DNA from: Patescibacteria group bacterium
GTDB lineage: Bacteria > Patescibacteriota > Patescibacteriia > JAXHNJ01
DNA length: 64,000 bases
Reading direction: 5' to 3'
NCBI GenBank assembly: GCA_041649715.1
Contig: JBAZMP010000001.1
Span: forward strand, 309,287-373,286
Under the pieces are notes generated by a model, which was not told the DNA's origin, did no database searches, and saw nothing but the letters and a program-made list of their open reading frames with translations. The position numbers were made by a program, and so were the translations under genes. Shown here piece after piece: positions 1,127-58,566 of this stretch. Each line of letters starts with the position of its first letter. The stretch's first letter is position 1.

Positions 1127-1213
1127 GGCATAAAATAACACAAATTTTGGTGGAAAATAGATTATAATACGGAGGTAAATTAAAAGAATTTTTGGGCAAT
1201 TAAATAAAAATAT

Positions 1214-3586
1214 ATGAATAGAAATGTAGTTGAAGAATATTTAAAAAAACAGAAAATAAAAGTCGTTGAGGAATTTGATTTTGAAAAAAAGAAAGTAAAA
1301 TATTCCGAAAAGATAAGAGGTTGGAAGATTGATAAATTTAGGGGCGATGAGGAAATCGTTAGAGCTTTTGTTCTTGCTAAACTTGTAAACGAATTGGGAT
1401 ATAAACCTGAGAATATTGAATTGGAAAAAGAATATGATATTGGTAGACCAAAGGTAAATAAACCCAGAATTGATATTATAGTTAAAGACGATAAAGACAA
1501 CGTTTTTTTGTATATTGAATTAAAAAGCCCCGCAGATTATGAAAAAGATAAGGATGAAGTAATTGAGAAACAACTTTTTAATCTTGCTTCACAAGAACAG
1601 GGCCAAGGTAAAAAAGTAAAATATCTCGTATTATATACAATTGAAATTGTTGAAACCCAGATAAAAGACAAATGTATTTTGATTGACTATGAAAAATTTA
1701 ATTCATTCAACACGTGGAAAGAAGTACGAAATTACGCAGATGAATTACCCGAAAGATATGAAAAAGCTCAAAAAGAACCATACGTAAAAGGTGGAAAAAA
1801 AGATTTAGAGACAAACTTTTCATATGAACAGCTTGATGGGCTGAGAAAAAATCTACATAATGTACTTTGGGGAGGTGGTGGAACAGATGACAACGATATT
1901 TTTTCGTCATTAGTAAATATTATTTTGGCAAAAATTCAAGATGAAAGCGAAAAAGAGGAAGGCGGAGAATATGACTTCCAAATTCGTTCATTTAAAGATG
2001 GCGAAAGTTTTGAAACCAACCAGCAACTTTTTATAAAAATAAATGATCTTTATATAAGAGCGTTAAAACAAAGATTAAATATTATTGACGAAAATGAGTT
2101 AAAAGAAAGCTTTGTAATTGATAAAAAGAAATTTTCTCTTGCAAAATTAAAATACACTATAATGCAAATCGAGAGATATTCATTTGTGGACGGGAAAAAC
2201 AGCTTTGACGGTAAAGATATTCTAGGAGACTTTTTCGAGGGTATTATTAGAGAAGGATTTAAACAAACAAAAGGTCAATTTTTTACGCATGTTAATATTG
2301 TAAGGTTTTTGCTTTGGGGGTTGCAACTTGATAAGCTAGCAATTGATAAAGTGAATAAAGATTTAGAAATTCCCTACCTAATAGATCCAAGCGCCGGTAG
2401 CGGCACTTTCCTGATTGAATATATGAAGTTTATTACCGAAAATCTCAAGAGAAGATTTAAAAGTAGACTAGCAAAAAAAAGAGACGTAGAGGACAAATTT
2501 AATCAATGGTTTATCCCTGACCACCGAGAAAATAAATGGGCACAACATTATATTTATGGCATAGAAACTAATTTTAATCTAGGTACTGCTACTAAAGTAA
2601 ATATGATTTTGCATGGGGATGGCTCAACTAATGTTTTTGTTAAAGACGGACTATTACCTTTTAATTATTACGACAAAGAAACCGCGCCGAACTATTTGAA
2701 GCAAAGCGAACAAGACAAAAACTACTTTAATAAAGAAGTAAATAAGCAATTTGACGTGATTATAACTAATCCTCCATTTAGTGTCACTTTGGATAATGAA
2801 ACAAAAGAGCATCTTACTAAAGAGTTTATTTTTGGAAGCACAAAAAACTCGGAAAATTTGTTTGTAGAAAGATGGTATCAATTATTAAAACCTAACGGAA
2901 GATTTGGGGTAGTTTTGCCAGAAAGTGTTTTTGATACAACAGAAAATAAATACATTCGTCTATTTATTTACAAATATTTTAAAATTAAAGCAGTAGTTTC
3001 TTTACCACAACTTACTTTTCAGCCGTTTACAAGTACTAAGACTAGTCTTTTATTCGCTCAAAAGAAAACTGATAAGGAAATTGAAGAATGGAATAAACTT
3101 TGGAGTAAATATAGTAGTGAATGGAGTGCTCTAAAAAATAAGTGTAAAAATTTATTATTGGTCTATTTAGAAAACAAAGACAAAAAGAAATTATCTTCAA
3201 TCAAAGATTTGTTAGAATCGGAGAAAAAAGAGATATTATTAAGAATGCTTAAAGATAATATTGAAGAAGATGATAAAAAATTATTAGCAAAAGAGCTGAT
3301 ATATAAATACAAAAGTGAATTAGTTGAACTTTGTGAATATGATAACGATACTAAAGATGTTTTTGGTTTTGTCAATACCTGGTGGGTTTTTAGTGAGGTA
3401 GCAAAAATACTCAATTACAAAATTTTTATGGCAGAAGTAGAAAATATTGGATATAAAAGGACTAAAAGAGCTGAAAAACCTATGCCAAACGAACTTTATC
3501 GCGTAAATGATAAAGGAGAAGTTTTAGTTGATGATGGCAGGATAGAAACTGCTTTAGATTATTTAAGAAAAGTGATATGGGATTAA
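1214..3586 (+). CDS. Restriction-modification bifunctional subunit: N-terminal HSDR_N-type PD-(D/E)xK nuclease domain fused to a gamma-class N6-adenine DNA methyltransferase (BcgI-A-like Type IIB, or a Type I M-like subunit)
   Basis: 790 aa. The N-terminal region has PRIDIIVKDDKDNVFLYIELKSP, a D..ExK nuclease motif. Methyltransferase motif I is LIDPSAGSGTFLIEY and motif IV is ITNPPFSV. The gene overlaps the downstream S gene by 10 nt and is extremely AT-rich. Confidence 0.75.
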   Translation: MNRNVVEEYLKKQKIKVVEEFDFEKKKVKYSEKIRGWKIDKFRGDEEIVRAFVLAKLVNELGYKPENIELEKEYDIGRPKVNKPRIDIIVKDDKDNVFLYIELKSPADYEKDKDEVIEKQLFNLASQEQGQGKKVKYLVLYTIEIVETQIKDKCILIDYEKFNSFNTWKEVRNYADELPERYEKAQKEPYVKGGKKDLETNFSYEQLDGLRKNLHNVLWGGGGTDDNDIFSSLVNIILAKIQDESEKEEGGEYDFQIRSFKDGESFETNQQLFIKINDLYIRALKQRLNIIDENELKESFVIDKKKFSLAKLKYTIMQIERYSFVDGKNSFDGKDILGDFFEGIIREGFKQTKGQFFTHVNIVRFLLWGLQLDKLAIDKVNKDLEIPYLIDPSAGSGTFLIEYMKFITENLKRRFKSRLAKKRDVEDKFNQWFIPDHRENKWAQHYIYGIETNFNLGTATKVNMILHGDGSTNVFVKDGLLPFNYYDKETAPNYLKQSEQDKNYFNKEVNKQFDVIITNPPFSVTLDNETKEHLTKEFIFGSTKNSENLFVERWYQLLKPNGRFGVVLPESVFDTTENKYIRLFIYKYFKIKAVVSLPQLTFQPFTSTKTSLLFAQKKTDKEIEEWNKLWSKYSSEWSALKNKCKNLLLVYLENKDKKKLSSIKDLLESEKKEILLRMLKDNIEEDDKKLLAKELIYKYKSELVELCEYDNDTKDVFGFVNTWWVFSEVAKILNYKIFMAEVENIGYKRTKRAEKPMPNELYRVNDKGEVLVDDGRIETALDYLRKVIWD

Positions 3587-4989
3587 ATAAATTTACAGTT
3601 GATTTTCAAAATATTGGTGAACAACAATTTTTAAGACCCAATTTTGGTTACAGGTATTTTTTTGATATTCAGAATGCGGAAATTTATCCTACAAAAGATA
3701 GTATTAAATTAAAATATGTCTTGAATGAGATGCCGATGAAGAAAGTAAGCAAGGGTGAATTAGAAGAGTCAGAAATTCTGATTGATATAGGAAATATTGA
3801 AAGAAGATTTAATAATTTAATAAATTTAGTAGAAGTAGATAGAATAGGTTCTGATAAAAATATAATGCAATATGGAGACATCATTATACCTAAATTGCAA
3901 CCACAAATGGGGAATATTTTTTTAAATTCTGGTCATAAAAGATTTATAGGATCTACCGAATTGCTTGAATATAAAATTAATGAAAATTATAATCCCATAT
4001 TCATTTATTACTTAATTACTTCTAATAAATTTCTTTTTGATCTAGCAAAATTGGAAAGTGGAAAAGCGCATAGAAGGGTAAATTCAGTAGATCTGTTAAA
4101 AATTAGAATTCCCTTAATATCTAAAGAATCGCAAGATTTAATTGTTGCTCAAATATGGCCGATTGAAAAGAAAATTAATGAACTAAAAAAACAAATTGAA
4201 CAACCTCAAAATGTTATTAATAAAGTTTTTGCAAGAGAATTTGGTTTTGATTTAGAAAAATATGAAAAGTTAAAGAAAGATAAGTTTTCCGAAGTAGATT
4301 TAAAAGATATTTTGAGACATAATTTTGTTAGAATAAGTTTTCATTTTCATCATAAAACTCTTATTGCCATTGAAAATAAATTAAAAAATAAGAATTATTG
4401 GGCGCCGGTTAATTCATTATTTAGTTTATTCGGTGGAAAAAGAATACCAAAGGGTAAGAGTTTTTCGAATATCGAAACGGACTATTATTATTTAAGACCT
4501 ACGGAAGTAAGTATTTGGGGTATTGATAAGATTAACGTTCCATTTATCCCTGTATCAATTTATGATCAGTTAAAGAGATATAAAATAGTAACGGATGAAT
4601 TTTGTATTTCAATTGTCGGTACTTTAGGGAAAACCGCGTTAATTAACACAGATATTTTAGATATAGGAAAAGATAATTTAATATTAAGTGAAAACTTTAT
4701 TAAACTAAAACCTAAAAAACATATAAATAGTTTATTTTATATTTACTTTTTTTATAGTTTTATTTTTGAAGCGCAAATTAATAGAGAATATACCATAACA
4801 TCAATAAAAAAATTAGGTATTGATAAATGGAATAATATAAAAATTCCATGTATTTCTATTATAAAACAGCAAAAAATTGTTGATGAAATCAAGGGTGAAT
4901 TAGACAAACAAGAAAAATTTTATAAGAAAATTGAAATGGAAAGAGATAAAATTGATGAGATTATTGAAAAAGTGATTATTCGTGAATAG
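3577..4989 (+). CDS. hsdS: Restriction-modification specificity subunit (HsdS / BcgI-B-like, two target-recognition domains)
   Basis: 470 aa. Two variable domains are separated by the conserved central coiled-coil spacer (LISKESQDLIVAQIWPIEKKINELKKQIEQ). The C-terminus has a matching repeat (IKQQKIVDEIKGELDKQEKFYKKIE). It is translationally coupled to the methyltransferase gene. Confidence 0.8.
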   Translation: MGLNKFTVDFQNIGEQQFLRPNFGYRYFFDIQNAEIYPTKDSIKLKYVLNEMPMKKVSKGELEESEILIDIGNIERRFNNLINLVEVDRIGSDKNIMQYGDIIIPKLQPQMGNIFLNSGHKRFIGSTELLEYKINENYNPIFIYYLITSNKFLFDLAKLESGKAHRRVNSVDLLKIRIPLISKESQDLIVAQIWPIEKKINELKKQIEQPQNVINKVFAREFGFDLEKYEKLKKDKFSEVDLKDILRHNFVRISFHFHHKTLIAIENKLKNKNYWAPVNSLFSLFGGKRIPKGKSFSNIETDYYYLRPTEVSIWGIDKINVPFIPVSIYDQLKRYKIVTDEFCISIVGTLGKTALINTDILDIGKDNLILSENFIKLKPKKHINSLFYIYFFYSFIFEAQINREYTITSIKKLGIDKWNNIKIPCISIIKQQKIVDEIKGELDKQEKFYKKIEMERDKIDEIIEKVIIRE

Positions 4990-5064
4990 ACTCATATTTA
5001 AGTCATTTTTACAATATCCATTGACCTAATTTATTTCAATTAATAATTATTAATTAAGAATATT

Positions 5065-5985
5065 ATGGCAAATCTCTATTGGAAAAAGAATAAAAAAATA
5101 TTAGCCGCTACCGAGACACCATTTAAAACAGAAGATGAACTTGAACGTTATCTATTAGATACCCGGGGGATTTTAAGCGAAATCAATATAATAAATAGGC
5201 AAATTAGGTCCAAAACGGTTTCAGGAATAGAAATTCCAGATATGATCGGAGTTGATAGCGAGGGTTCCATTGTTATTATTGAAAATAAAAATGTTCCGGT
5301 TGATGAAAGGATTATTTCTCAGGTACTTAATTATGCTCTTTGGGCAGAATCTAATCCAGATTCAATAAAGAATTTATGGCTTCAAGCTGATCAAGAAGGC
5401 GTGGAACCAGAATGGGACAATTTACAAATTCGCATAATGATAGTTGCCCCAGAAATAAAACCACATTTAGCAAAATTCATTTCAAAAATTGGATACCCAA
5501 TTGATTTATTAGAGATAAAAAAATTTAATATTAGTAAAGATGAATTTATTGTGTTAAATAAAATAGAACCAAATATAATTGATACAAAACCAGTACATGC
5601 AAAAAGAAATTATGATTATTCATATTATTCAACCAATCATAATAAGGAAAGTGTAAAAAAACTTGAAAAAGCTGTAAATAGCGTTGAAAATTATGTTAAT
5701 AAAAACAAATGGAAATTAGAAAAAAAATTTAACCAAGGTTATGTGGGCTTTAAATATGGTTTTCCCTTAGTTTTTGGCATACAGTGGTTAGGAACCAGAT
5801 CCTTCGGGTTTTTTTTCAAAATGCCTAAAGCAAAAATGAAAAAAATTATTGTTCCGGGCCTTGAATTTAAGGGTTATAATGATCGGTGGGATCAAGTAGA
5901 ATATAAAATTATTTCACCTACTTTTGACGTTAAAAAATTAAAACCAGTGTTTCTAGCTTCATACAATTATGTCAAAGGAGAATAA
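5065..5985 (+). CDS. PD-(D/E)xK nuclease-like protein of unknown function (restriction-endonuclease-like fold, possible NucS/DUF91-like core)
   Basis: 306 aa. IPDMIGVDSEGSIVIIENKN followed by QVLNYALWAE reads as D...ExK plus a QxxxY motif. The gene is AT-rich and sits inside the defense island. Confidence 0.45.
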   Translation: MANLYWKKNKKILAATETPFKTEDELERYLLDTRGILSEINIINRQIRSKTVSGIEIPDMIGVDSEGSIVIIENKNVPVDERIISQVLNYALWAESNPDSIKNLWLQADQEGVEPEWDNLQIRIMIVAPEIKPHLAKFISKIGYPIDLLEIKKFNISKDEFIVLNKIEPNIIDTKPVHAKRNYDYSYYSTNHNKESVKKLEKAVNSVENYVNKNKWKLEKKFNQGYVGFKYGFPLVFGIQWLGTRSFGFFFKMPKAKMKKIIVPGLEFKGYNDRWDQVEYKIISPTFDVKKLKPVFLASYNYVKGE

Positions 5986-6031
5986 CATTTTTTCTTTAAA
6001 AGTTGCGCTATAATATAATAAGATATGCAGC

Positions 6032-6598
6032 ATGAGTAATCTTGAAACATTTTTCGAACAATTCGAAGAATGGGTGCTAAAAGATATTAAAATAGTACTA
6101 GAATTAGTAAATAAAGAAGGTAATTCATTAGCCCCTGATAGAAGAGTGGTGGTTTGGCGGCGCCCGCTTGTCGCCGGAGTTATATTAATATGTTGCGCTA
6201 TCGATACATTAGCCGCATTTCGTTATGGCCGAACTAATAATAATGTGGGAACATATTTTATGCGCTTTGTTAGAGATTATTTTGCGCAAAGCCGTGACAC
6301 TAGATATAATGATGAGCAAATCTATAAGGGGTTACGTAATGCATTATTACACGGCTATTCTCTTGGATCAGATTTAGCATTAAGTCATACTAGCGCTTCA
6401 CGGCATTTGACGAAAGAAGCAAACAAAATAGTTATAGATGTATTTTCACTGCAGCAAGATTTAGAAAAAGTATATTCTATCTATAAAAGTGAATTGAAAA
6501 ATGGACAACATATTCCAGAATTTAATGATAGATGGAATTACGCACCTCTTATTCAATATTTTCCTGATATAGATTTAAAACTTAATAGCAGAAATTAA
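6032..6598 (+). CDS. Hypothetical protein (defense-island associated)
   Basis: 188-aa ORF with no recognisable motif. It follows the nuclease-like gene 46 nt downstream and is followed by a strong terminator. Confidence 0.5.
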   Translation: MSNLETFFEQFEEWVLKDIKIVLELVNKEGNSLAPDRRVVVWRRPLVAGVILICCAIDTLAAFRYGRTNNNVGTYFMRFVRDYFAQSRDTRYNDEQIYKGLRNALLHGYSLGSDLALSHTSASRHLTKEANKIVIDVFSLQQDLEKVYSIYKSELKNGQHIPEFNDRWNYAPLIQYFPDIDLKLNSRN

Positions 6599-6652
6599 AG
6601 TAATTCAAACATAAGCTCATTTTTCCCTCCCCACTGGCGGTTTTTGCCTAAC

Positions 6653-6687
6653 AAAAAAATCCTCAAAAAAGCTGACGAGGATTTTTG
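6653..6687 (+). terminator. Intrinsic terminator
   Basis: AAAAAATCCTC-aaaaaagctgac-GAGGATTTTTG hairpin. Confidence 0.6.
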
Positions 6688-6691
6688 ACTA

Positions 6692-6871
6692 TTAAATAGT
6701 CAAATCGTGAATAGGTACACTAGCTGCCCAACGTTTTATCCATTGAACAGAATCTATAGCATTTTGTTTTGAGGAATAACCCTCACTCCAAGCAACGAAT
6801 TCGTTGTTTGCAGCAACAAGACGCCATCGGTACTCATTTGCGTTATCACGATAGATTTCGAATCTAATCAT
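6692..6871 (-). CDS. YegP/UPF0339 (DUF1508) family small protein, absent from the ORF track because it is under 60 aa
   Basis: Reverse-strand translation gives MIRFEIYRDNANEYRWRLVAANNEFVAWSEGYSSKQNAIDSVQWIKRWAASVPIHDLTI (59 aa), the classic DUF1508 pattern FEIYkDkageyRfRLkA.NGEiia.SegY.sk. Confidence 0.7.
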   Translation of the reverse strand: MIRFEIYRDNANEYRWRLVAANNEFVAWSEGYSSKQNAIDSVQWIKRWAASVPIHDLTI

Positions 6872-7293
6872 GATTTTTTTCCTTTGTTAGACTATACTTA
6901 GGAGTCGACCTTTAATTTACTCCCAGGACAAAAACCAAATAATTTAGTTCCTATCAGGGGAGAATTAAAAGCGACTTAATCTAGATATAGAATAAGCGCC
7001 GGATTTTACCTCGCCAGCTTTTTCAAAGAGTTTTTAACAGCTACATACTAACGAATAATAATGTCTCTGTCAAGTAGGTTTATTATTTTAGCTAAAAAGC
7101 TTATAATAAATCCATGTCCAAATACTACAACTCTAAGCGCACCAAACATCTTTTTGACCCTACCTTTTTTAACGCTATTTGTTATAAGCACTAAATCCGA
7201 AATACGAAACTCTAAACAAATTCTAATTTCTCAAATCCGAAATTCGAAACTGAGGGTTTTAAAAGCCAAAGACGATAACGAAAAACAAGCGGT

Positions 7294-7405
7294 AGAGGGG
7301 GTCCGGGGGAAAAACTGAAAGCCAAACGGCCATACGGAACAACCTTACCCACCTCTCGCGGTTTTTTTCCCCCGGAACTTTTGCTACTTTTAGTTATAAA
7401 AGTAG
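7294..7405. repeat. Structured repeat family A, copy 1 (GGGGTCCGGGGG ... CCCCCGGAAC long hairpin plus a small 3' hairpin)
   Basis: GGGGGTCCGGGGGAAAAACTG...CGGTTTTTTTCCCCCGGAAC, then CTACTTTTAGTTATAAAAGTAG. Related copies lie at 10409..10530, 12596..12755 and 12866..12955. Confidence 0.7.
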
Positions 7406-7409
7406 AAAT

Positions 7410-7525
7410 ATATCAGTACAGACAAAAAAGTAAGTAGGGGATAATCAAAAAAGACTGTCTACCCTTCGAGGCTCAAGCCTGTCCTGAGTGGCATCGAAGG
7501 ACACCTCAGAGTGACAGTTTTATTT
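7410..7525. repeat. Structured repeat family B, copy 1 (AGTAGGGGATAA..CTGTCTACCCTTCGAGGCT-[variable]-CACCTCAGAGTGACAGTTTTA)
   Basis: The conserved 5' and 3' arms can pair (CTGTCTACCC with GGGTGACAG) around a variable core. Copies lie at 10141..10215, 10560..10640, 10700..10795 and 12757..12790. Confidence 0.65.
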
Positions 7526-7695
7526 TGATTCTTTTTCACCAAAAAAACAAACAATCAACCAAGACATTTTTTATCCGCCCGCTAGCCTTAGCGTGTTTTT
7601 TGTATGAAGAAGTTTATCCACCTTGACTTAGAAAGGTATATATATTAGTGTTAAGTTAGTACTAATTCAGTAAATTAGCACAATCTACTAATTTT

Positions 7696-8283
7696 ATGAA
7701 ATGGCTAGATTTTGAGCGAAAAATTAAGAGTAAAAATATTAAGCTGTTCACGCCGCTTGATGTGCAGAGATTTTTAGGCCGGTCTAAAATAGCCGCCCGT
7801 TTTTTGATCCATCGCCTGAAAAAAAATGGCTATATTGTGAGCCTCAAACGCGGTTTGTATAAGCTGTCCGATGAACAAATTCCGGATCTGTATCTGGCCA
7901 ATAATATTTACGCCCCCTCGTATGTTTCCCTGGAATTCGCCCTTTCGTACCACGGAGTCATTCCCGAAACTGTCTATGAGATAACTTCGGTTACCACCAA
8001 GGCCACCCGCCGGTTTGAGGCGCTGGGAAAAGTTTTTTCTTACCACAAAATAAAAAAACCGGCTTTTACCGGCTATGTCATCCAAAAACAGGGCGGGTTG
8101 GGTTTTCACGTCGCCGAACCAGAAAAGGCTTTCGTGGATGCGAATTATTTTCGGCTCTTGGACGGCCGAAAACCGCTGTCCCGCTTCAACAAGGATAAAA
8201 TTGATTTAAAAAAGGCCTTGTTTTATGCCGCTCTTTTCGGCAATCAGAAACTTAACAATATAATTAAAACAACGCTTCAATGA
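7696..8283 (+). CDS. abiEi: Type IV toxin-antitoxin system antitoxin AbiEi (winged-HTH transcriptional regulator)
   Basis: 195 aa. The N-terminus MKWLDFERKIKSK...FTPLDVQRFLGRSKIAARFLIHRLKKNGYIVSLKRGLYKL is typical of AbiEi. The gene overlaps the downstream gene by 4 nt (ATGA). Confidence 0.75.
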   Translation: MKWLDFERKIKSKNIKLFTPLDVQRFLGRSKIAARFLIHRLKKNGYIVSLKRGLYKLSDEQIPDLYLANNIYAPSYVSLEFALSYHGVIPETVYEITSVTTKATRRFEALGKVFSYHKIKKPAFTGYVIQKQGGLGFHVAEPEKAFVDANYFRLLDGRKPLSRFNKDKIDLKKALFYAALFGNQKLNNIIKTTLQ

Positions 8284-9023
8284 TTTCCCAGGAATTAATA
8301 AAAAAAATAGCCAGTCAGAATAAAACAGCGGATTTTCCCAATATTGTCCGCGAGTATTTTCAGCACCTTTTTTTATCCGAGCTCTATAGATTATCCGGCG
8401 CCGAGAATTTGCTTTTTAAGGGCGGGACCGCTTTGCGCATTATCTACGGCAGTCCGCGCTTTTCCGAGGATTTGGATTTTACCCTGATCGGCGTTGAAGG
8501 TTACCGGAAAAAGGAATTCGCGGAAAGCCTGTTTCTCAGCGTTTTGACCGAGATTGAAAAAATCGGCATTAAGGTGGAGATAAACCGGAAGTCGGATGAG
8601 ACCCGCGAGGGTTATTTTGGCGATGCGAACTATCAGGTTTATGATTATCCCGAAACGTCCGTGAGTATAAATATATCCTCAAGAGAGGGAAAAGATATTA
8701 AGGGCGAGATTGATTCCATCGCCAATGATTTCATACCGACTTATAATATTCTGCATCTGTCAAAAAATGTGTTGGTGGAAGAAAAAATAACGGCCGCGAT
8801 CACTCGGGCGAAACCCAGAGATTTTTACGATGTCTATTTTATCCTTAGAAAAAATTTGCTGGCGACAGAAAATAAAAAAATACTCCCTGACATCCTTGAT
8901 AAATTGAATAACACTGATATTAATTTTACCCAGGAATTAGGCATTTTCTTGCCGAAGGATCAGCAGCAAATAGTGAAAGATTTCAAGAATATTTTAACTT
9001 CTGAAATAAAGCGTTATATTTAG
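8280..9023 (+). CDS. abiEii: Type IV toxin-antitoxin system toxin AbiEii (DUF1814 nucleotidyltransferase)
   Basis: 247 aa. It has the nucleotidyltransferase motif LFKGGTALRIIYGSPRFSEDLDFTL (GS...DxD), and its size and operon partner are typical. Confidence 0.75.
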   Translation: MISQELIKKIASQNKTADFPNIVREYFQHLFLSELYRLSGAENLLFKGGTALRIIYGSPRFSEDLDFTLIGVEGYRKKEFAESLFLSVLTEIEKIGIKVEINRKSDETREGYFGDANYQVYDYPETSVSINISSREGKDIKGEIDSIANDFIPTYNILHLSKNVLVEEKITAAITRAKPRDFYDVYFILRKNLLATENKKILPDILDKLNNTDINFTQELGIFLPKDQQQIVKDFKNILTSEIKRYI

Positions 9024-10059: not shown

Positions 10060-10830
10060 GCAGATAATATTATTGTCATACTGAGGAGCCATGAGATCCT
10101 GAGTCGCATCGAAGGACGAATGGCGTCTCGAAGTATGACCGTTTAGACACATAAAAGCCTGTCTATCCTTCGAGGCTCGCATTGCTCGCACCTCAGGGTG
10201 ACAGTTTTAGTTTTATTTGAAATTCGGTGCATCGGATTTAATCGTCAGGCGGCGAAGCGTTGACGAGCCGCCACTAAGAAAAAGTTAGCAGTAATTTAAG
10301 CTTTCAGCAGGCTGGGGTCTCTGCCTACGGCAGACAGGTGGGGGCTTCATCGCCTTAAATATTTTACAGCGTTTTTTGCTATTAAAAATAACGAAAATTT
10401 AATGGGCGAGGGGGTCCGGGGGAAAAACTGAAAGCGAATGGGCTACGCGGTAAAACCAACCCCCTGTGCTCGCGGTTTTTTTCCCCCGGGGCTTTTGGTT
10501 CTTTTGGCCTCAAAAGAACAAGACAATCAGCCTTGCCCCCTAAAATAAAAATTTTCTAAAGGTAAAAACTCACCCTTCGAGGCTCCCATTCGACGCGGCT
10601 CATGCTCGCACCTCAGGGTGACAGTTTTATTATTTTGGTTTTTGGAGTCTGCCCTGAGTGGCAACGAAGGGGTTACAAAAGTTGAAATACTTCGGCACAG
10701 ACTAAAGATTGAGTAAGGGATAAACAGAAGAAACCGTCTACCCTTCGAGGCTTAGGCGTTGCCTTCGCACCTCAGGGTGACAATTTTAGTTTGCATTTAT
10801 CAACTTTATAAGATTAAAATAAAAGACCCT
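10060..10830. repeat. Non-coding island densely packed with structured repeat modules (families A and B, a TTAGCAG..GCTTTCAGCA module and an AGCCTTGCCCCC..AAAATAAAA module)
   Basis: Family A copy at 10409..10530. Family B arms at 10158..10215, 10571..10640 and 10735..10795. A CTGCCCTGAGTGGCAACGAAGGGGTTACAAAAGTTGAAA module at 10644..10690. No credible ORF. Confidence 0.7.
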
Positions 10831-10879
10831 TTTGTTCAAGCAGTGGGTCTTTAGGCATCTGCTAGCTTGCGGATGGGCG

Positions 10880-11188
10880 CTACGAGAGGAACTGGATCCA
10901 GCCATGGCGGGTGCGAAAATCGAATTTGATGAGATGATCGTGCGGTCCCTCCCGGTCAACCGAGTAGGCCTTTATTATCCAGCGTTCGCCGGAGACGTCT
11001 GCCCGCTCCATCCCTCGGATAGCGGCGTTAACGGCGGTTTGAGGCGCCATGGGCGGCATACCTCGTTTCCACGGCTTCGGCGTGATCTTGAATTCTACCC
11101 ATTTCTGTTCGTGATTCTGGCCCACGAACAGAGCGATGAGGGCGTCGAACTTCGACGGCCCGTCGAGGATCTCAATACGCTGTGCCAT
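10880..11188 (-). CDS. Hypothetical protein (GC-rich)
   Basis: 102-aa ORF with an excellent Shine-Dalgarno sequence AGGAGGT 6 nt upstream of the ATG on the minus strand. The overlapping plus-strand 178-aa ORF is Arg/Pro-rich junk. Confidence 0.5.
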   Translation of the reverse strand: MAQRIEILDGPSKFDALIALFVGQNHEQKWVEFKITPKPWKRGMPPMAPQTAVNAAIRGMERADVSGERWIIKAYSVDREGPHDHLIKFDFRTRHGWIQFLS

Positions 11189-11375
11189 CCGGCACCTCCT
11201 GGGAAAAGAGCGGATTTCCTTGGGCTAGGCGGAAATCACCGGCCTACTTATTCCCGTTTTTGCCCGCGGGAACGACCTGCTCATCCGAGACAGGAATTAC
11301 GGATATTACAAATTAGCATAGAGACAAAACTTAGTCAAGAGTTTTTATTTTTTTCAATTAGAGTATAATAAACTT

Positions 11376-11637: not shown

Positions 11638-12531
11638 ATGCAAAAAAAATCCTGGCTTAGCCTCATTTATTTTCTGGTTTTTGGCTTATTAATAATTTTT
11701 ACTTTCTTATTCAAAAGCCGTTCTCTGCTGTATGTAGTAATTCCCATTTTTTTTGGTTTTATCGTGGTTTTGAGTTTGATAAATGTTGGAGGCAAGATGT
11801 TTTCTTTTTCCAAAGGTTTGATGACCATGAGTAAAACCGGGCCGGTTTTTACCTCTAAGGTCTGGTCTTGGCGGGAAGGGGAAACGATTGATTTCGCCGA
11901 TATTTTTCCGGGGTTGAAGGACGTGACCTCATTTTTCAGTGAAATGCCACTGCCGAAAATAAAACCGGAGAGAGTGGCGATTGGAGAAAAAGAGGGGGTG
12001 AATTATAATATTTACCGGCTTAATTTCACGAATATCGTAAAAGTTCCGGCCAGCCGCAAACCGGGCTTCCGGCCGCTGATAATCCACGGGGTTAAAGCGC
12101 CGGGAATGAGCGGGGGCTTGAATTCAAGTGTGAGCCAGAGCTTTAATATTTTGCAGGCCAGATTGACTTTTCCTGGATCTTTCCCCGGCCGTTTGATTAT
12201 CCAAAGAGTTGCCGGGCCGACCTTGGGCCGTGATATTGATCTGGAAAGCGTGGAATTTAACAAAAAAGTTCAGGTCTATACCAATCAGGCCAAAATCGCT
12301 TACCAGATTTTATCCCCGGATTTTATGGACTGGTATTTGAAACTGCCTGATCAGCCGGTTATCGCTTTTGACCAACAGATATGTTATTACACCCTGATCG
12401 GATTCAGTAATAAGGGTGAGGAAGAGATTACCGCCGATATTGAACAATTGATTGACCGCGTCCTGCATTCAGGGGCTTTAACCTTATCCCAAATCCCAAA
12501 TCCTAAATCCAAAACAAATCCCAATATCTAA
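11638..12531 (+). CDS. Hypothetical membrane protein (two N-terminal TM helices plus a globular domain)
   Basis: 297 aa. TM helices are LSLIYFLVFGLLIIFTFLF and VVIPIFFGFIVVLSLINV. The last roughly 12 codons (PNPKSKTNPNI) are encoded by an AAATCC-type repeat. Confidence 0.55.
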   Translation: MQKKSWLSLIYFLVFGLLIIFTFLFKSRSLLYVVIPIFFGFIVVLSLINVGGKMFSFSKGLMTMSKTGPVFTSKVWSWREGETIDFADIFPGLKDVTSFFSEMPLPKIKPERVAIGEKEGVNYNIYRLNFTNIVKVPASRKPGFRPLIIHGVKAPGMSGGLNSSVSQSFNILQARLTFPGSFPGRLIIQRVAGPTLGRDIDLESVEFNKKVQVYTNQAKIAYQILSPDFMDWYLKLPDQPVIAFDQQICYYTLIGFSNKGEEEITADIEQLIDRVLHSGALTLSQIPNPKSKTNPNI

Positions 12532-13175
12532 ATCTGAAATTCGAAACACGGCGGCGTCGTCTCATTTTATGGTGAACAAAAGTAATCAGAAAGCGTGGGG
12601 GCTCCGGGGGTTTTCCTCAGTCCGCAGGGGTTTTAGCGTCTATTTACGCAAATCTTGAACGAATTAAAACCCCCGGGGCTCTTTGGTACTTTCTGGCCCC
12701 AGAAAGTACAAGCAAACAGCCTTGCCCCCAAAAATAAAATTTTCAAAAAAGTAAAACTAACCCTTCGACGCGGCTCAGGGTGACAAGAGGAGAAAGGCGG
12801 CGAAACCAGGGGCGAGCCGCCTAGTGAATAAAAATTAGCAGATACTTTATGCTTTCAGCAAAACAGGGGTCCGGGGGGAATGCTCGACTTTGCGGCTTTT
12901 AGCATTTATATGAGTTTTAAGGGGGCAATCATTCCCCCCGGAACTTTTGCTACTGGAGCCTGCCCTGAGTGGCACCGAAGGGGTTACAAAAGTTGAAAGA
13001 TAGCATCTAAAAAAACAGCTAAAGTAAAACAAAATAATAAACCAAAAAATTACTCTCGCCCGTCTTACGCATAGGTCGATCTTTTTGGCTAATTTAAGCA
13101 GAAATAACAAAAAGACGTTAATTTTGACTAAATCGGCTAAAATCGCTATAATAAAGTTAAATACAGGAGGGGAAA
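12532..13175. repeat. Non-coding island of structured repeat modules (family A copies 3 and 4, a family B fragment, and others)
   Basis: GGGGGCTCCGGGGGTTTTCC...AAAACCCCCGGGGCTC at 12596..12680. GGGGTCCGGGGGGAATG...CATTCCCCCCGGAAC at 12866..12955. CTGCCCTGAGTGGCACCGAAGGGGTTACAAAAGTTGAAA at 12958..13000. Confidence 0.7.
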
Positions 13176-14480
13176 TTGAGTAAACAAATGCCGTATATTT
13201 TGTTATCAGACATCAAGCAATATTTAGGCCAAGAGGTGCTTCTTAAAGGCTGGGTTTTTAACGCCCGGTCTTCCGGAAGCCTCTTTTTTTTACAGCTGCG
13301 GGACGGCTTGGGAGAGGTTCAGGGAGTAGTTTCCAAAAAAGAAGTCAGCCCGGAGGTTTTTGACGCCGCAAAGAAGCTTCAGATAGAATCTTCCGTGGAA
13401 GTCACCGGGATTTTGAAAGAAGAGGCTAAATCGCCCTCGGGTTTTGAAATTCAGGTTAAGGATTTGAAAGTCATTCAGATAGCCTCCGATTACCCGATCG
13501 CCAAAAAAGAGCACGGCCCGGATTTTCTGATGGATAACCGGCATTTGTGGCTTCGTTCTTCCCGCCAGCGGGCGATTTTAAAAATAAGGGATTCGGTTAT
13601 TTGGGCCGCCCGCAAATTTTTTAAAGACAATAATTTTACGCTGACGGATTCGCCGATCCTGACGCCGACCGCCTGCGAAGGGACGACCACGCTTTTTAAA
13701 ACCAAATATTTTGAGGAAGACGCTTATCTCGCGCAGTCCGGACAATTATACATTGAAGCGACGGCCGCCGCCCTGGGCCGGGTTTATGATTTCGGGCCTA
13801 CATTCCGGGCGGAAAAATCCAAGACCCGTCGTCACCTGATGGAATTCTGGATGCTGGACGCGGAAGCGGCTTTTGTGGAGCATGAGGAAAACTTAAAGAT
13901 CCAGGAAAATCTGATCAGTTCCATTGTTAAATATGTTTTGGAAAATAATAAAAAAGAGCTGGCAGTTTTGGAAAGAGACATAAAACCTTTGGAAAAAATT
14001 AAGCCGCCTTTTTACCGCAAGAAATATGAAGAGGTTATTAAGGATCTGCAAAGCAAGGGAAGCCCGATAAAATCCGGGGATGATTTCGGCGGAGACGAGG
14101 AAACCCTGATTTCCAAGGATCTGGACAAACCGGTTTTTGTCACGCATTGGCCGAAAAGTATAAAACCTTTTTACATGAAACAGGATCCCCGAAATCCCAA
14201 ATTAGTTTTGAATGCTGATTGCCTCGCCCCGGAAAGTTTTGGCGAGATCATCGGCGGTTCGCAAAGGGAAGATGATTATGAAACTTTGAAAGCCAACATG
14301 GAAAAAGCGAAAATTCCCATCAAGGATTACCAGTGGTATTTGGATTTGCGCCAATACGGCACTTTTCCGCACTCCGGTTTTGGCTTGGGAATTGAAAGAA
14401 CCGTGGCCTGGATCTGCGGATTAAAGCATATCCGCGAGACGATACCGTTTCCAAGAATGCTGAATAGACTTAGGCCATAG
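13176..14480 (+). CDS. asnS: Asparagine--tRNA ligase
   Basis: 434 aa. Class II motif 2 is FRAEKSKTRRHLMEFWMLDAE and motif 3 is GFGLGIERTVAWICGLKHIRETIPFPR. It has an N-terminal OB anticodon-binding domain and the size typical of AsnRS. A TTG start sits 5 nt after AGGAGG. Confidence 0.85.
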   Translation: MSKQMPYILLSDIKQYLGQEVLLKGWVFNARSSGSLFFLQLRDGLGEVQGVVSKKEVSPEVFDAAKKLQIESSVEVTGILKEEAKSPSGFEIQVKDLKVIQIASDYPIAKKEHGPDFLMDNRHLWLRSSRQRAILKIRDSVIWAARKFFKDNNFTLTDSPILTPTACEGTTTLFKTKYFEEDAYLAQSGQLYIEATAAALGRVYDFGPTFRAEKSKTRRHLMEFWMLDAEAAFVEHEENLKIQENLISSIVKYVLENNKKELAVLERDIKPLEKIKPPFYRKKYEEVIKDLQSKGSPIKSGDDFGGDEETLISKDLDKPVFVTHWPKSIKPFYMKQDPRNPKLVLNADCLAPESFGEIIGGSQREDDYETLKANMEKAKIPIKDYQWYLDLRQYGTFPHSGFGLGIERTVAWICGLKHIRETIPFPRMLNRLRP

Positions 14481-14499
14481 TTGGTATTAATTTGTTATT

Positions 14500-14672
14500 T
14501 TTAAATCCTAAATTCTAAATCCGAAAATCTAAACAAATCTTAAATTCTAAATTCCAAATTCAAAACCGGTTTGGAACATTGGAAAATTAGGGCTTCGAAT
14601 TTGTTTCGGATTTAGGATTTCGCGCTTCGAATTTATCTGAATTTTGGTGCTTGTAATTTGGAATTTTGAAGA
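14500..14672. repeat. Long AT-rich palindromic hairpin of the AAATYC/GAATTT family (probable bidirectional terminator)
   Basis: AAATCCTAAATTCTAAATCCGAAAATCT...TTTCGGATTTAGGATTT. The two arms are near-perfect reverse complements across more than 60 nt. Confidence 0.65.
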
Positions 14673-15125: not shown

Positions 15126-15146
15126 GAATATTAGTATTAAAATAAT

Positions 15147-16421
15147 ATGGAAGATCAAACTCAACCCAATCCGACAAAGGAAAAACGCCCTCAAAAAACC
15201 AGCTTGCTGGCCATTCTTATTTTGATCGCCGTCCTGCTCGGGGCGATCATTATCGCCGGCTACTTCTATTTTGTTCCGGCGGACAGGGAGAATAAAAACA
15301 CCAATCAGGTGGCGGTCAGTTCCAATTCTAATGAAAATCAGAACACCAGCCAGCTTTTAGGCGGAGATGAAGATGAGCACGGCTGCAAAGGTTCGGCCGG
15401 CTATTCTTGGTGCGAAGCTAAGCAGAAATGCTTGAGAATTTGGGAGGAGGTCTGCCCAAGTAGCTTTAATAATTTGGGAAATAGCGCCCCCACTTTATCG
15501 GGCGAATTCTGGATGATTCAAAATTATACCGCTAAATTAAAGAGTATTAATATTGCCAATAAAGAGATTAAAGAATGGACGGAATATCCAAATCAACCTC
15601 AAAATAGCGAAAATGAAATACCGGCGCCAAAAGGTAATCACATGTTATATAATAAAAAAGATACTGACGGAAATTGGGCCTTGTATGTTTCTGAGACCAA
15701 TGGTAAAAATGAAAAACTTATTACGACTGGCGGGGTGTGTACAGATGGTCCGTGTTCCAAAGAAAATACTTATGGAGTGGGCAAAATTTCTCCGGATGGG
15801 CAATATGTTTCATTCAGAAAAGGAGAAAATAGCATTGTTAAAAATCTTGTCACTGATAAAGAAACCATTCTGCCCTTAAAACTGACTCTCGCTCCTGCGG
15901 CTTTTACTCCTCTTCAGACATATGTTTACACAGTTTCACAAAAGGAAAATGAGGTTAATTATTACCTGGAAATCGGCAAGTTATCAGATACTGAATTTCG
16001 CTTGATTAATCCCGCACTTTCCCTTTTTTATGCCATTGATTTTTCGCCGGACGAAAATTATTTTGCCATTAGTGGTAATCAGGGAGTTTGCATCTATGAG
16101 ACAAAGACCGGCCAGTTATTAGACAAAAAAGAGAGTAATGATATGTCAGGAATTTACGAAATAGTTTGGCTATCAAACAATAAGCTTATTTTGCGGACTC
16201 ATAATTCAGTTTTGCATCAATTTACTTTAATCGATCATAAAATTACCGAAGAAATAATATACAAAGCCGAATATTTAGACTCCCTTTTTAGAATAGATGA
16301 CAATAATGTTCTTTTGCGATCCGGCGGTAATGATTTGATAGTGATTAATACGACTACCGGAACTATAACCGAAGTTTATTCAAGTGACGATTATTTCGCT
16401 ATTTTAGGGTCAAAGGAATAA
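15147..16421 (+). CDS. Signal-anchored secreted protein with a Cys-rich module and TolB-like beta-propeller repeats
   Basis: 424 aa. The N-terminal leader KEKRPQKTSLLAILILIAVLLGAIIIAGYFYFVPADRENKN is shared with the next gene. Repeats such as SPDGQYVSF and FSPDENYFAISG are propeller-like. Confidence 0.6.
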   Translation: MEDQTQPNPTKEKRPQKTSLLAILILIAVLLGAIIIAGYFYFVPADRENKNTNQVAVSSNSNENQNTSQLLGGDEDEHGCKGSAGYSWCEAKQKCLRIWEEVCPSSFNNLGNSAPTLSGEFWMIQNYTAKLKSINIANKEIKEWTEYPNQPQNSENEIPAPKGNHMLYNKKDTDGNWALYVSETNGKNEKLITTGGVCTDGPCSKENTYGVGKISPDGQYVSFRKGENSIVKNLVTDKETILPLKLTLAPAAFTPLQTYVYTVSQKENEVNYYLEIGKLSDTEFRLINPALSLFYAIDFSPDENYFAISGNQGVCIYETKTGQLLDKKESNDMSGIYEIVWLSNNKLILRTHNSVLHQFTLIDHKITEEIIYKAEYLDSLFRIDDNNVLLRSGGNDLIVINTTTGTITEVYSSDDYFAILGSKE

Positions 16422-16447
16422 TTATATTAAATAGTCGAAAAAAATAA

Positions 16448-17311
16448 ATGCCAAACCAACCTCAAATTAATCCGCCAAAGGAAAAACGCCCTCAAAAAAC
16501 CAGCTTGCTGGCCATTCTTATTTTGGTCGCCGTTCTGCTCGGCGCGATCATTGTCGCCGGCTATTTCTATTTTGTTCCGGCGGACAGGGAAAACAAAAAT
16601 GCCAGCCAGGCGGCGGAAAACTCTAATATTAATGTAAATTTAAATAATAATGAAAATCAGAATAATAATTCAAATAATAGCGCTAGCGCAAATGAGGTAA
16701 AGACAGCCATTGGCTTGGTCAGCTTAAGCTGTGCCACGAAATCTGACTGTGTGTTAATTGGTAAAGAGAAAGATTATGATTGTTGCGGCATTGGTAGTTG
16801 CCTCGACTATTCTCAGGGGATTTGGGTGGCGGTGAATAATCGTTCTTTCCAAGAAATTATCGAGCGACATAATTGTAATATAGCCTGCCCTGATAATATG
16901 GAGGTATGTTTTTATAATGATTATTATGAAGTAGGATGCCAGAATAACCGCTGTCAAACGATAAAAGTAACTAAGACTACTGAAAATTCCGATTCAAATG
17001 AAATAAGTGTAATCGGCGGTCAGGTGAGTTTGAGTTGTTCTTCAAAGCAAGATTGTCGATTGATTGACAAAGAAAAGGACTATACCGTTTGTTGTTCTCA
17101 ATATTCTCAACCGGACTATACCAAAGGGATTTGGGTAGCGGTCAATAGTAGTTCTTTCCAAAAAATTGTTGGCTCTAACAGCGCCTGCAAATTGAAAGTC
17201 TGCCCGGATAATATGGAAGTATATTATAGCGGTAATGTTCCGTATGAAGTGGCATGCCAGAATAACCGCTGTCAAACGATAAAAATAAACAGGACTATTG
17301 TTGAGTATTAA
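16448..17311 (+). CDS. Signal-anchored secreted protein with a tandem duplicated 8-Cys domain
   Basis: 287 aa. The leader is about 92 percent identical at the DNA level to that of 15147..16421. There are two roughly 90-aa repeats (VSLSC..DC.LI.KEKDY..CC......GIWVAVN..SFQ.I......C....CPDNMEV.Y......EV.CQNNRCQTIK). Confidence 0.65.
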   Translation: MPNQPQINPPKEKRPQKTSLLAILILVAVLLGAIIVAGYFYFVPADRENKNASQAAENSNINVNLNNNENQNNNSNNSASANEVKTAIGLVSLSCATKSDCVLIGKEKDYDCCGIGSCLDYSQGIWVAVNNRSFQEIIERHNCNIACPDNMEVCFYNDYYEVGCQNNRCQTIKVTKTTENSDSNEISVIGGQVSLSCSSKQDCRLIDKEKDYTVCCSQYSQPDYTKGIWVAVNSSSFQKIVGSNSACKLKVCPDNMEVYYSGNVPYEVACQNNRCQTIKINRTIVEY

Positions 17312-20039: not shown

Positions 20040-20067
20040 ACAAAATAATTTTAGAATATTGCTAATT

Positions 20068-58434: not shown

Positions 58435-58566
58435 GTGATTTTTTGTTTTTGTTTTATTTAACTTCTGCTTTTATTGTAGCACACTTTTCCTGTTTTGTAA
58501 AGGGTGTCGTCTTTAAGAAAAGTCCCCTTCGATTCTCTCAAAGGGGACATCTGCATCATGTGCATA

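Follow-up and report, generated by a model that had tools for sequence, protein, structure and literature searches.

Few non-coding elements in bacteria are as abundant as REP-type repeats, whose sequences are lineage-specific. To our knowledge, an enzyme is known for the GTAG class of REPs only (RAYT). A CGTC-tagged REP superfamily, described by Di Nocera et al. 2013 (PMC3733652), is frequent in Alphaproteobacteria, occurs in several phyla and includes the Neisseria dRS3 repeat of NIMEs. Its members are described there as perfect 8-9 bp stems that open with two A-T pairs and have loops of 4-5 nt and a CCA tail, and the family 'apparently lack[s] a dedicated transposase' (PMC3733652).

Here we analysed a 64-kb stretch of a Patescibacteria genome (the window, to which all positions refer) containing three repeat islands, A, B and C. 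We interpret these islands as Patescibacteria mosaic clusters of REP/BIME/NIME-like hairpins, probably spread by a GIY-YIG nuclease encoded elsewhere, a mechanism that we infer; the probability of this reading is, in our estimate, roughly two-thirds.

The initial annotation had described positions 10060-10830 (island B) as an ORF-less island of repeat modules, and this was borne out: the segment is made up of such modules and lacks a credible ORF. From the stop codon of a 340-aa gene (10059) to ~10808 the ORF list contains no frame of at least 60 aa; minus-strand ORFs of 43 and 45 aa are the only ones there, and the gene caller of the public assembly called zero genes in this gap. Self-blastn aligned 10483-10583 with 12670-12771 (84%, E 1e-19), 10634-10687 with 12945-12998 (89%, E 7e-12), 10149-10213 with 10724-10792 (81%), 10388-10643 with 7275-7536 (69% over 271 nt, E 6e-27) and 10672-10793 with 7393-7527 (73%, E 2e-18). 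Motif counts were compared with expectations from 100 shuffles. CCTCAGGGTGACA (at most one mismatch) was observed 5 times against 0.02 expected and CCTGAGTSGCANCGAAGG 4 times against 0.00; GGGKYCCGGGGG, with 5 against 1.6, is weak taken alone, and every one of its sites is the foot of an 80-nt hairpin. Exact string search confirmed all module coordinates.

The same modules recur in a different order at 12532-13030 (island C) and 7185-7530 (island A), and an additional unit copy (L200:6860-7027, minus strand, 172 nt aligned at 80%) lies outside the window, ~3 kb before its start. Island A and the upstream copy had been overlooked in the earlier description. Island C had been drawn from 12532 to 13175; its reordered modules were recovered, its right edge is at ~13030, and the remainder (13030-13179) is the conserved AsnRS upstream region, common to relatives, which carries the AsnRS promoter (TTGACT-17-TATAAT, 13124-13152). 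The true AsnRS start codon is ATG (13188) rather than TTG (13176). Island B ends at ~10808-10820. The adjoining hairpin at 10821-10852, together with its T-run, forms the intrinsic terminator belonging to the minus-strand gene 10880-11188, and the plus-strand ORF 10832-11368 is therefore probably spurious.

At least 11 long- or short-type hairpin copies (defined below) are present in the window, none inside a credible ORF. Across the three islands, copies in F and K orientation are mixed with the modules M1, hp2, M2, M5, X and Y in varying order. The islands therefore show the features of REP/BIME mosaics, namely short extragenic repeated palindromes, compensatory stems and both orientations interleaved with other motifs.

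Table 1. Repeat modules and adjoining features in the window. R1, covariance model (see text); L073 lies in a related Patescibacteria genome and L201 is the 89% relative.
Island	Feature	Position	Strand	Evidence and remarks
A	AAATYC satellite left arm, before repeat unit	7192..7250	+	repeat families D1/D3, exact search
A	M1 long hairpin, GGGGGTCCGGGGG + AAAAA ... TTTTT + CCCCCGGAAC, interior variable	7297..7378	+	RNA fold -38 kcal/mol, z -2.8
A	hp2 hairpin CTACTTTTA/TAAAAGTAG, empty form, loop without short element	7378..7409	+	24-nt indel versus B and C copies
A	type-I unit conserved linker	7410..7454	+	88% to L073:3885-4001
A	M3 long-type hairpin CTGTCTACCCTTCGAGG..CCTCAGAGTGACAG, short-type element in loop (7481-7502)	7455..7517	+	R1 E 0.1; composite also in L015 (96%)
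B	long-type hairpin, K orientation, TGTCATACTGAGG..TCTCGAAGTATGAC, nested short-type element (10096-10117)	10074..10139	+	DNA fold -13.7 kcal/mol, z -2.9; R1 match 10091-10122, E 0.011
B	M3 copy B1, long-type hairpin, F orientation	10159..10204	+	self-blastn, exact search, R1 E 1.4
B	hairpin Y, GGCGGC..GCCGCC	10248..10272	+	sequence inspection, exact search; second copy 12796-12821
B	M2, TTAGCAG..GCTTTCAGCA, TYAGCA direct repeat 20 nt apart	10285..10309	+	exact search; stands before M1 in C2, L073 and L200
B	hairpin X, GGGGTCTCTGCC-TACG-GCAGACAGGTGGGGG	10314..10344	+	exact search; variant at L073:3718-3770
B	M1 copy	10410..10492	+	RNA fold -49 kcal/mol; 79% to island A copy
B	hp2' hairpin GTTCTTTTG/CAAAAGAAC, type-II unit	10493..10522	+	compensatory changes versus C copy and L201
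B	M5, A-rich tail of type-II unit, CAGCCTTGCCCCCTAAAATAAAA...	10528..10570	+	84% to 12670-12771
B	M3 copy B2, long-type; short-type F element CATTCGACGCGGCTCATG in loop (10587-10604)	10571..10624	+	exact search; composite also in L078 (88%)
B	hp2 with short-type element at apex (10651-10672)	10633..10688	+	alignment, motif count
B	type-I unit linker	10689..10734	+	85% to L073:3908-4022
B	M3 copy B3, long-type hairpin	10735..10783	+	R1 E 0.01; DNA fold z -2.3
outside B	terminator hairpin AAAGACCC..GGGTCTTT + T-run of gene 10880-11188	10821..10852	-	sequence inspection
C	type-II unit: M1 copy C1 (inner stem TTTT/AAAA, not AAAAA/TTTTT) + hp2'	12597..12712	+	RNA fold -53 kcal/mol, z -3.7; kept in L201
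C	M5 tail	12717..12758	+	self-blastn
C	complete short-type hairpin, F orientation, AACCCTTCGACGCGGCTCAGGGTGACAA	12759..12786	+	top R1 match in window, 35.9 bits, E 2e-8
C	hairpin Y	12796..12821	+	exact search
C	type-I unit C2: M2 (12835-12860), M1 (12866-12944, inner stem GAATG/CATTC), hp2 with short-type element (12962-12983)	12835..12999	+	80% copy on opposite strand, L200:6860-7027
solitary	short-type variant GTCCCCTTCGATTCTCTCAAAGGGGACA, between two minus-strand genes	58520..58550	+	weak R1 match, E 8

Nearly every module is a hairpin whose stem is maintained by compensatory changes. In the core family, an invariant CTGAG...TCGAAG core surrounds two non-Watson-Crick positions that are likewise invariant; the stem covaries, and a TGTC tag is usually present. 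The family occurs as a long form of 45-60 nt (CCCTTCGAGG..CCTCAGGGTGACA) and a short form of 22 nt (CCTGAGTGGCAnCGAAGG), the latter also found nested within the apical loops of other hairpins. The earlier division into separate module types had to be amended here, as CCCTTCGAGGCT..CCTCAGGGTGACA and CTGCCCTGAGTGGCAnCGAAGGGG proved to be the long and short forms of this one family on opposite strands. Covariation of the short type scored 0.416, compared with 0.134 in shuffles (none of 500 reached the observed value) and at most 0.135 in slid controls; double changes numbered 39 at pair 7-26, 47 at pair 8-25 and 20 at pair 14-18. The apical stem of the long type carries double changes in 14-17 of 78 sequences, and M1/hp2 is compensatory in 13 of 32 pairs (6 copies).

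Among 288 copies the tag reads TGTC in 143, GTTC in 30 and CGTC in 16, and the window copies carry TGTC. Pairing is ~80% at stem positions 1-2 but only ~30-35% within the tag, indicating an unpaired terminal tag. An A-T pair follows the tag directly in 131 of the 288 copies, the second position being variable, and no CCA tail was seen among the family copies. Loops measure 2-5 nt. Single hairpins have unremarkable nearest-neighbour folding energies (z -0.3 to -2.9). Wobble asymmetry gives contradictory indications of the folding strand, with stem positions 3-4 favouring one strand and 5-6 the other; the K strand has a tandem G-A, which we compared with the K-turn/K-loop. The long form, with 25 fixed bases, has 128 copies; its loci, at least 111, belong to several distant phyla and include Bradyrhizobium isolates. 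The existence of this cross-phylum family and its tie to GIY-YIG nuclease genes (see below) had gone unnoticed in the initial annotation. Most copies across genomes are solitary, and tandem arrays also exist (52-nt period, L039). M1, M2, X and Y were seen in this lineage only (6 copies), and thus nothing links them to the nuclease.

Hairpins of this kind might also act as RNA. According to this explanation, which we regard as unlikely, the islands are transcribed together with the neighbouring genes or between them, and their hairpins work as terminators, mRNA stabilisers or small RNAs, the M2-M1-hp2-linker-M3 unit (~245 nt) being a small-RNA gene with M3 as its terminator; such a role would be compatible with mobility, as in enterobacterial REPs. 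Four of the five plus-strand F-oriented hairpins of the window (long-type copies A, B1, B2 and B3) are followed by TTTTA-type runs, so that a terminator role is possible; the fifth, the short-type hairpin at 12759-12786, has no such run. Every M1 and M3 copy in the window is on the same strand as the genes beside it, the M1 base uses G-U pairs possible on one strand only, and the 89% relative retains the hp2' pairing by compensatory change. That many REPs are transcribed is argued by Di Nocera et al. 2013 (PMC3733652).

Several observations oppose an RNA role. The same hairpin lacks T-runs in the related genome JBDRMK01 and in GC-rich genomes, and the M1 interior is not conserved. Rfam 15 returned nothing relevant at gathering score in the window or in 20 GIY-YIG loci, nor any family in the 6.8 kb around the islands even at E 10. 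The promoter scan detected the AsnRS promoter only and no promoter-like site upstream of the units. The short-type loops of 2-3 nt are closed by a covarying C-G pair, and such loops are better known in DNA hairpins than in RNA. Moreover, copies that are nested and in both orientations are ill-suited to a single defined RNA.

Other scans of the locus gave a single unrelated tRNA-Glu (tRNA/tmRNA), terminator counts equal to chance and zero matches to M1 in viral contigs. A CRISPR array was rejected, as the spacing is irregular and the sole Rfam CRISPR-DR match is below threshold and inside a gene. A hammerhead ribozyme, considered after comparing the CUGA..GAA core by hand, was rejected because the UGA of CUGAUGA is missing and Rfam gave no match.

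The islands are located in a strain-specific defence region with defence genes, patchy GC and lost synteny. As previously stated, they bracket accessory gene blocks, in the order A, AbiEi-AbiEii-340 aa, B, 102 aa/83 aa/DUF3137, C, AsnRS. Presence/absence variation, anticipated in the initial annotation, was found among relatives. Those with AsnRS 75-83% identical have a spacer of 80-160 nt and no island, and the 89% relative L201 keeps one unit and lacks the 12739..13029 block, an indel polymorphism of ~290 nt (L201 1-82 corresponds to 12655-12738 and 94-243 to 13030-13179, with a gap of 11 nt in L201 versus 291 nt here). The otherwise conserved hp2 hairpin carries a 24-nt short hairpin at its apex in some copies and lacks it in others, and the islands of close relatives differ by whole-module indels. 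From these indels and the genomic context we infer recombination at the island sites. The suggestion of a decayed array of a mobile non-coding element holds insofar as the copies are non-coding and probably mobile; instead of one array, the islands combine, as a mosaic, at least two types of unit with several hairpin families that are independent of one another.

These comparisons also bear on the improbable case of local segmental duplication and decay of one ancestral intergenic region, with neither mobility nor any connection to a nuclease. In its favour, all three islands fall within 6 kb and large parts of them are colinear (271 nt at 69%). However, the same units are non-syntenic in another genome (L073, L015, L078, L197) and the core hairpin with its 25 fixed bases occurs in distant phyla, and these copies largely refute it; an opposite-strand copy 10 kb away and discrete 24-nt and 290-nt indels bounded at modules count against it as well. 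Still less probable is that the hairpins are cassette recombination sites like integron attC, at which a site-specific recombinase shuffles the defence blocks. Conserved unpaired bases, variable loops and the bracketing of accessory blocks in a defence region would fit such sites, but no integrase or recombinase was found among the scanned neighbours, the hairpin ends read TGTCA/TGACA rather than RYYYAAC/GTTRRRY, and several hairpins stand at each junction, with tandem arrays elsewhere and most copies solitary. A chimeric or collapsed repeat, conceivable in a metagenome assembly because repeats assemble poorly, is least probable of all, as the same proteins (and gene order where shown) occur on long contigs from more than one assembly or source (at most 3 contigs; ENA, NCBI, JGI), copies that are 69-89% identical are too divergent to collapse, and the independent assembly of a relative has one unit in common.

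The reading of the islands as mobile hairpin clusters draws further support from the association of the core hairpin family with a nuclease gene in other genomes. Stand-alone GIY-YIG genes (UPF0213, Slx1-like) adjoin the hairpin in 6 of 111 hairpin-selected loci, representing five phylum-level lineages, and form the largest non-orthologous neighbour cluster in this set. In the reverse direction, 80 loci were chosen by protein alone, from one GIY-YIG subfamily seeded from hairpin-adjacent genes. At least one hairpin lies within 250 nt in 56 of the 72 protein-selected loci having both flanks, and hairpin density is 5.0 per kb near the GIY-YIG gene versus 0.28 in the remaining non-ORF sequence of those contigs. 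Orientation is biased and inverted: upstream of the gene there are 45 K and 21 F hairpins, downstream 43 F and 23 K. Upstream copies read TGTCAnnCTGAG.. and downstream ones ..CTCAGnnTGACA. The strict long-type motif is found beside GIY-YIG in only ~5 of the 80 loci; the association became apparent with the short type present in the flanks.

The covariance model R1, built from GIY-YIG flanks only, was run on the 64-kb window, where its four best matches all fall within the three islands (best E 2e-8). No GIY-YIG gene was found in the window or the 10 kb upstream (74 kb of the source genome scanned). The related genome JBDRMK01 holds both the GIY-YIG nuclease and dispersed copies; two of its GIY-YIG genes are flanked by M3/M4 copies, including the exact GCCTGCCCTGAGTGGCAACGAAGGG of the window. 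In the isolate Sphingomonas parapaucimobilis YK209 a GIY-YIG gene lies between hairpins, and the hairpin dimer occurs at ~40 places on the replicons.

The nuclease is a minimal domain of 95-107 aa that matches Pfam PF01541 (1e-18). Residues Y7, Y17, R27, H31 and E65 are invariant and correspond to the GIY-YIG catalytic set, and the enzyme is, judged by its sequence, probably active. Its identity of 60-65% across phyla is consistent with horizontal spread. An empty-site search (GIY-YIG gene between nrdR and an RNA methyltransferase, plasmid records) yielded no informative relative. In the literature we found no link of GIY-YIG (YhbQ, COG2827, UPF0213) to REP, hairpins or transposons, and searches with the sequence strings of the repeats returned primers only. 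As inverted copies of the hairpin flank GIY-YIG genes in distant phyla, Patescibacteria and Alphaproteobacteria among them, the nuclease is a candidate for the enzyme spreading such repeats. On association alone, the nuclease gene might home into existing hairpin clusters, or the hairpins might instead be its expression signals.

In the model that we favour, the GIY-YIG nuclease encoded elsewhere in the genome would recognise the hairpin once folded, in extruded or single-stranded DNA, and nick or cut at that place. Repair templated on other copies would then copy hairpins, and sometimes the gene too, into new sites, preferentially existing hairpin loops and clusters; with this preference, copies would accumulate as mosaics. 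M1, hp2, M2, X and Y would be lineage-specific companions of the hairpin family, and the accessory (defence) genes lying between the repeat-rich seams may be inserted, lost and exchanged more readily because of them.

More tentatively, and at somewhat less than even odds in our judgement, TGTC/CGTC-tagged CTGAG/TCGAAG hairpins and the minimal GIY-YIG nuclease may constitute an unrecognised cross-phylum replicator, with the Patescibacteria islands as its accumulation sites and defence-gene seams. If so, the missing enzyme would be supplied for a REP superfamily reported in 2013 without one, and the system would be a REPIN-RAYT analogue driven by a different, structure-specific nuclease. Confirmation would also give a cellular role to the large UPF0213/YhbQ-like family, for which we found no assigned function, explain one very common origin of the spurious small ORFs in genomes from soil and groundwater, and indicate that tiny CPR genomes too carry such replicators, placed where defence-gene blocks begin and end. 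In annotation, the islands should be treated as repeats, not genes.

Compared with known systems, the elements resemble MITEs in being small, non-coding, dispersed and mutually nested, but are single hairpins of 22-60 nt; terminal inverted repeats matching a known IS, and target-site duplications, were not seen by eye. Like homing endonuclease genes (phage seg, I-TevI relatives), a small GIY-YIG gene lies between host genes. Homing enzymes, however, have a separate DNA-binding domain and target the uninterrupted site rather than their own flanks, whereas the minimal proteins described here are flanked by a dispersed repeat.

REP/BIME and REPIN-RAYT systems (Enterobacteria, Pseudomonas) share with these islands short imperfect extragenic palindromes, compensatory stems, inverted doublets and clusters of alternating orientation with other motifs; REPIN-RAYT likewise places a small nuclease gene between inverted repeats and leaves most copies solitary. 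The tag differs, being TGTC(A) here and GTAG in REPIN-RAYT, as does the gene, which is GIY-YIG (UPF0213, Slx1-like) rather than an HUH/Y1 transposase. No Y1 transposase turned up among the neighbours scanned, GIY-YIG being the recurrent neighbour, and JBDRMK01 carries at least two GIY-YIG genes. Unlike in REPs, the core sequence is common across phyla. The CGTC superfamily of Di Nocera et al. (PMC3733652) shares the unpaired terminal CGTC/TGTC tag followed by A, the short loops, and the arrangement in dimers and clusters among repeats of other families. The examples decoded from the supplement of that study (PMC3733652) are VIPAKAGI and VIAGLDPAI-type, unlike the CTGAG/TCGAAG found here. The present family is further set apart from that superfamily by its invariant core with two non-Watson-Crick positions, the variable apical stem of its long form and its strong association with GIY-YIG genes.

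The 770-bp island at 10060-10830 (island B) had been described as ORF-less and built of mosaic repeat modules that recur downstream, and both descriptions held. An ORF scan found no ORF of at least 60 aa between a 340-aa gene that stops at 10059 and ~10808, and public annotation has no gene call in the same gap. Comparison of the window with itself recovered the reported modules and added others. Island B contains repeats within itself, matches island C (12532-13030) in stretches of 104 nt (84%) and 54 nt (89%), and has 271 nt (69%) and 135 nt (73%) in common with a third cluster, island A (7185-7530). One unit has a fourth copy, on the opposite strand ~3 kb before the window starts, and module motif counts exceed those in shuffled sequence by orders of magnitude. 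To the right of island C, 13030-13179 is the conserved promoter region of the AsnRS gene. The window is also on record within a Patescibacteria (CPR) metagenome contig (ENA ERZ27247363 k141_3042223, 382 kb).

Beside island B, the public gene call and the initial annotation both use a plus-strand 178-aa TTG ORF (10832-11368). Its translation resembles antisense junk, and a minus-strand 102-aa ORF (10880-11188) has a canonical terminator (10852 to 10821) and then a T-run behind it; the plus-strand gene is probably spurious.

Almost all modules are hairpins, and the islands are REP/BIME- or NIME-like mosaics of them. Copies of module M1 vary in their interior and differ in their inner stem (AAAAA/TTTTT, TTTT/AAAA or GAATG/CATTC); for M1, M2, X and Y only six copies are known. 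Hairpins hp2 or hp2' directly follow M1, and pairing in them, as in M1, is kept by double changes. One core hairpin, read on opposite strands, has a long form, module M3 (CCCTTCGAGGCT..CCTCAGGGTGACA), and a short form, module M4 (CCTGAGTGGCAnCGAAGG). Short-form copies are housed in the apices of other hairpins; neither hp2 of island A nor an hp2 copy from a related genome holds one at the exact nesting point, giving a clean 24-nt indel. On one strand of the core hairpin, tandem G-A pairs can presumably form beneath a GNA or CTTG-type mini-loop, and such mini-loops are well known from DNA hairpins. A terminator or stabiliser role is possible for plus-strand hairpins with a T-run after them.

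Repeat modules, nested copies, satellite runs and defence genes
Feature	Position	Description
M1		80-nt hairpin; conserved foot GGGGGTCCGGGGG / CCCCCGGRRC
Type-I unit		M2-M1-hp2-linker-M3
Type-II unit		M1-hp2'-M5-M3
Short copies nested in M3	7481-7502; 10587-10604	
Short copy nested in reverse-oriented long hairpin	10096-10117	
Short copies nested in hp2	10651-10672; 12962-12983	
AAATYC satellite, window	7192-7250; 12488-12547; 14495-14667; 20062-20193; 34730-34858; 37677-37841; 41720-41745	
AAATYC satellite, related Patescibacteria locus L073	3385-3550; 4040-4100	
Methyltransferase (HSDR_N_2/N6_Mtase/Eco57I) and type I-like specificity subunit	in 1214-9023	25-31% GC
PDC-S18 candidate defence protein	5065-5985	E 2e-100
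AbiEi/AbiEii	in 1214-9023	

A second repeat family comprises AAATYC-type satellite runs (7 nt), often as two inverted arms that form big intergenic palindromes at gene ends. A lone left arm immediately precedes each of islands A and C, and the satellite at 12488-12531 encodes the C-terminus (..PNPKSKTNPNI*) of a 297-aa DUF3137 protein. Two long direct repeats bear no relation to the islands: 45759-46038 with 48465-48744 (280 nt at 79%) and 15139-15338 with 16440-16639 (200 nt at 84%), the latter tying the starts of two adjacent, probably paralogous genes (424 aa and 287 aa).

Upstream of AsnRS lies a strain-specific defence region of patchy composition, with a defence island at 1214-9023. The low GC of 1200-6600 (25-31%, versus ~42-48% elsewhere) suggests that it was acquired recently. 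Immediately 5' of the window are Bro-N, NYN and 23S_rRNA_IVP genes. Comparison with related genomes, as the initial annotation had proposed, revealed presence/absence variation. Relatives with 75-83% identical AsnRS have the order ATPase-DUF2238-AsnRS with a spacer of 80-160 nt and no island, and an 89% relative retains the C1 unit, whose hp2' carries a compensatory change there, and lacks 12739-13029. This block starts in the M5 tail and continues with a short hairpin, Y, M2, M1 and hp2/M4. In a 75% relative, TGTCCCGAGCGTAGCGAGAG-like motifs in the spacer that separates DUF2238 from a 158-aa gene (L193:9188-9418) may represent the core hairpin in diverged form.

The core hairpin extends far beyond this genome. 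An exact search with both M3 halves (25 fixed bases, one genome per species) returned 128 copies at 111 loci in Patescibacteria, Peregrinibacteria, Eremiobacterota, Acidobacteriota, Alpha- and Gammaproteobacteria (Bradyrhizobium isolates among them) and Bacteroidota. Flanks are AT-rich or GC-rich in keeping with each host, and the apical stems vary by compensatory change. No Rfam family matched.

Among ORFs no more than 120 nt from a hairpin at these 111 loci, the biggest cluster beyond mere orthologues was a ~97-aa gene, flanked by inverted hairpin arrays in Eremiobacterota and Acidobacteriota and by inverted hairpins also in Patescibacteria, Peribacteria and Cyclobacteriaceae. Its product is a stand-alone GIY-YIG domain (Pfam PF01541, 1e-18) with invariant Y7, Y17, R27, H31 and E65, whose nearest solved relatives are the UPF0213 proteins 1zg2 and 1ywl. 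Homologues of one such protein (locus L006) are 57-68% identical over ~100 aa in Patescibacteria, Nitrospirota, Nitrospinota, Margulisbacteria, Brocadia, Ignavibacteria, Flavobacteria and Eremiobacterota, which as sequence identity is unusually close across such distant phyla and consistent with horizontal transfer.

In the converse test, 80 metagenome loci were picked by the GIY-YIG protein only. The strict long motif is rare near these genes; their flanks bear the short form, TGTCAnnCTGAGCnnGTCGAAGnn 5' of the gene and its complement 3'. At least one hairpin copy lies within 250 nt of the gene in 56/72 loci, and hairpin density per kb of non-ORF DNA is 5.0 beside the gene versus 0.28 elsewhere on the same contigs, with a ~2:1 orientation bias in the inverted sense. 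Across 88 flank copies, picked by a pattern that fixes CTGAG and TCGAAG, stem covariation was strong, at 0.416 versus 0.134 when shuffled (0/500 shuffles as high; slid controls at most 0.135), and covarying pairs include one closing a 2-3 nt loop. A covariance model built from GIY-YIG-flank copies alone placed its four best matches in the 64-kb window all inside the three islands (top E 2e-8).

No GIY-YIG gene was found in 74 kb of the window's own genome. The related genome JBDRMK01 has the window's composite units at non-syntenic sites and two GIY-YIG genes with M3/M4 on their flanks, one of these copies matching the window's M4 exactly. The finished Sphingomonas parapaucimobilis YK209 genome carries the GIY-YIG gene between nrdR and an RNA methyltransferase gene, with hairpins on both sides, and the hairpin doublet occurs at ~40 places on the replicons. 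There (NZ_CP155752.1, 295264-296742) the gene overlaps the methyltransferase gene start by 4 nt. Head-to-tail arrays can also adjoin GIY-YIG genes (L039:990-1236, 1576-1715; L020:6300-6500, 6835-7375), that of L039 comprising five identical copies with a period of 52 nt. Runs of half-hairpins (GCTCGCACCTCAGGGTGACA repeated) beside the genes at these two loci suggest local amplification or aborted copying.

We propose a model in which the GIY-YIG nuclease would recognise the folded hairpin and break DNA there, and repair templated by other copies would spread hairpins, preferentially into existing hairpins and clusters. The literature covered, with few subscription journals in it, yielded no report tying a GIY-YIG nuclease to such repeats. 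A 2006 GIY-YIG survey regards the stand-alone proteins of bacteria as minimal Slx1-like enzymes; it remarks on domain mobility and leaves repeats unmentioned. It also describes a GIY-YIG domain fused to a SPOUT methyltransferase in Erythrobacter, echoing the S. parapaucimobilis gene order; such fusions may be by-products of the element inserting upstream of a methyltransferase gene. REPs of the CGTC/TGTC superfamily 'apparently lack a dedicated transposase', insert into palindromes and, in Neisseria, occur clustered with repeats of other families (Di Nocera et al. 2013, PMC3733652). The core hairpin resembles that superfamily in its tag and general design; its core sequence is unlike the examples decoded from the supplement of that study.
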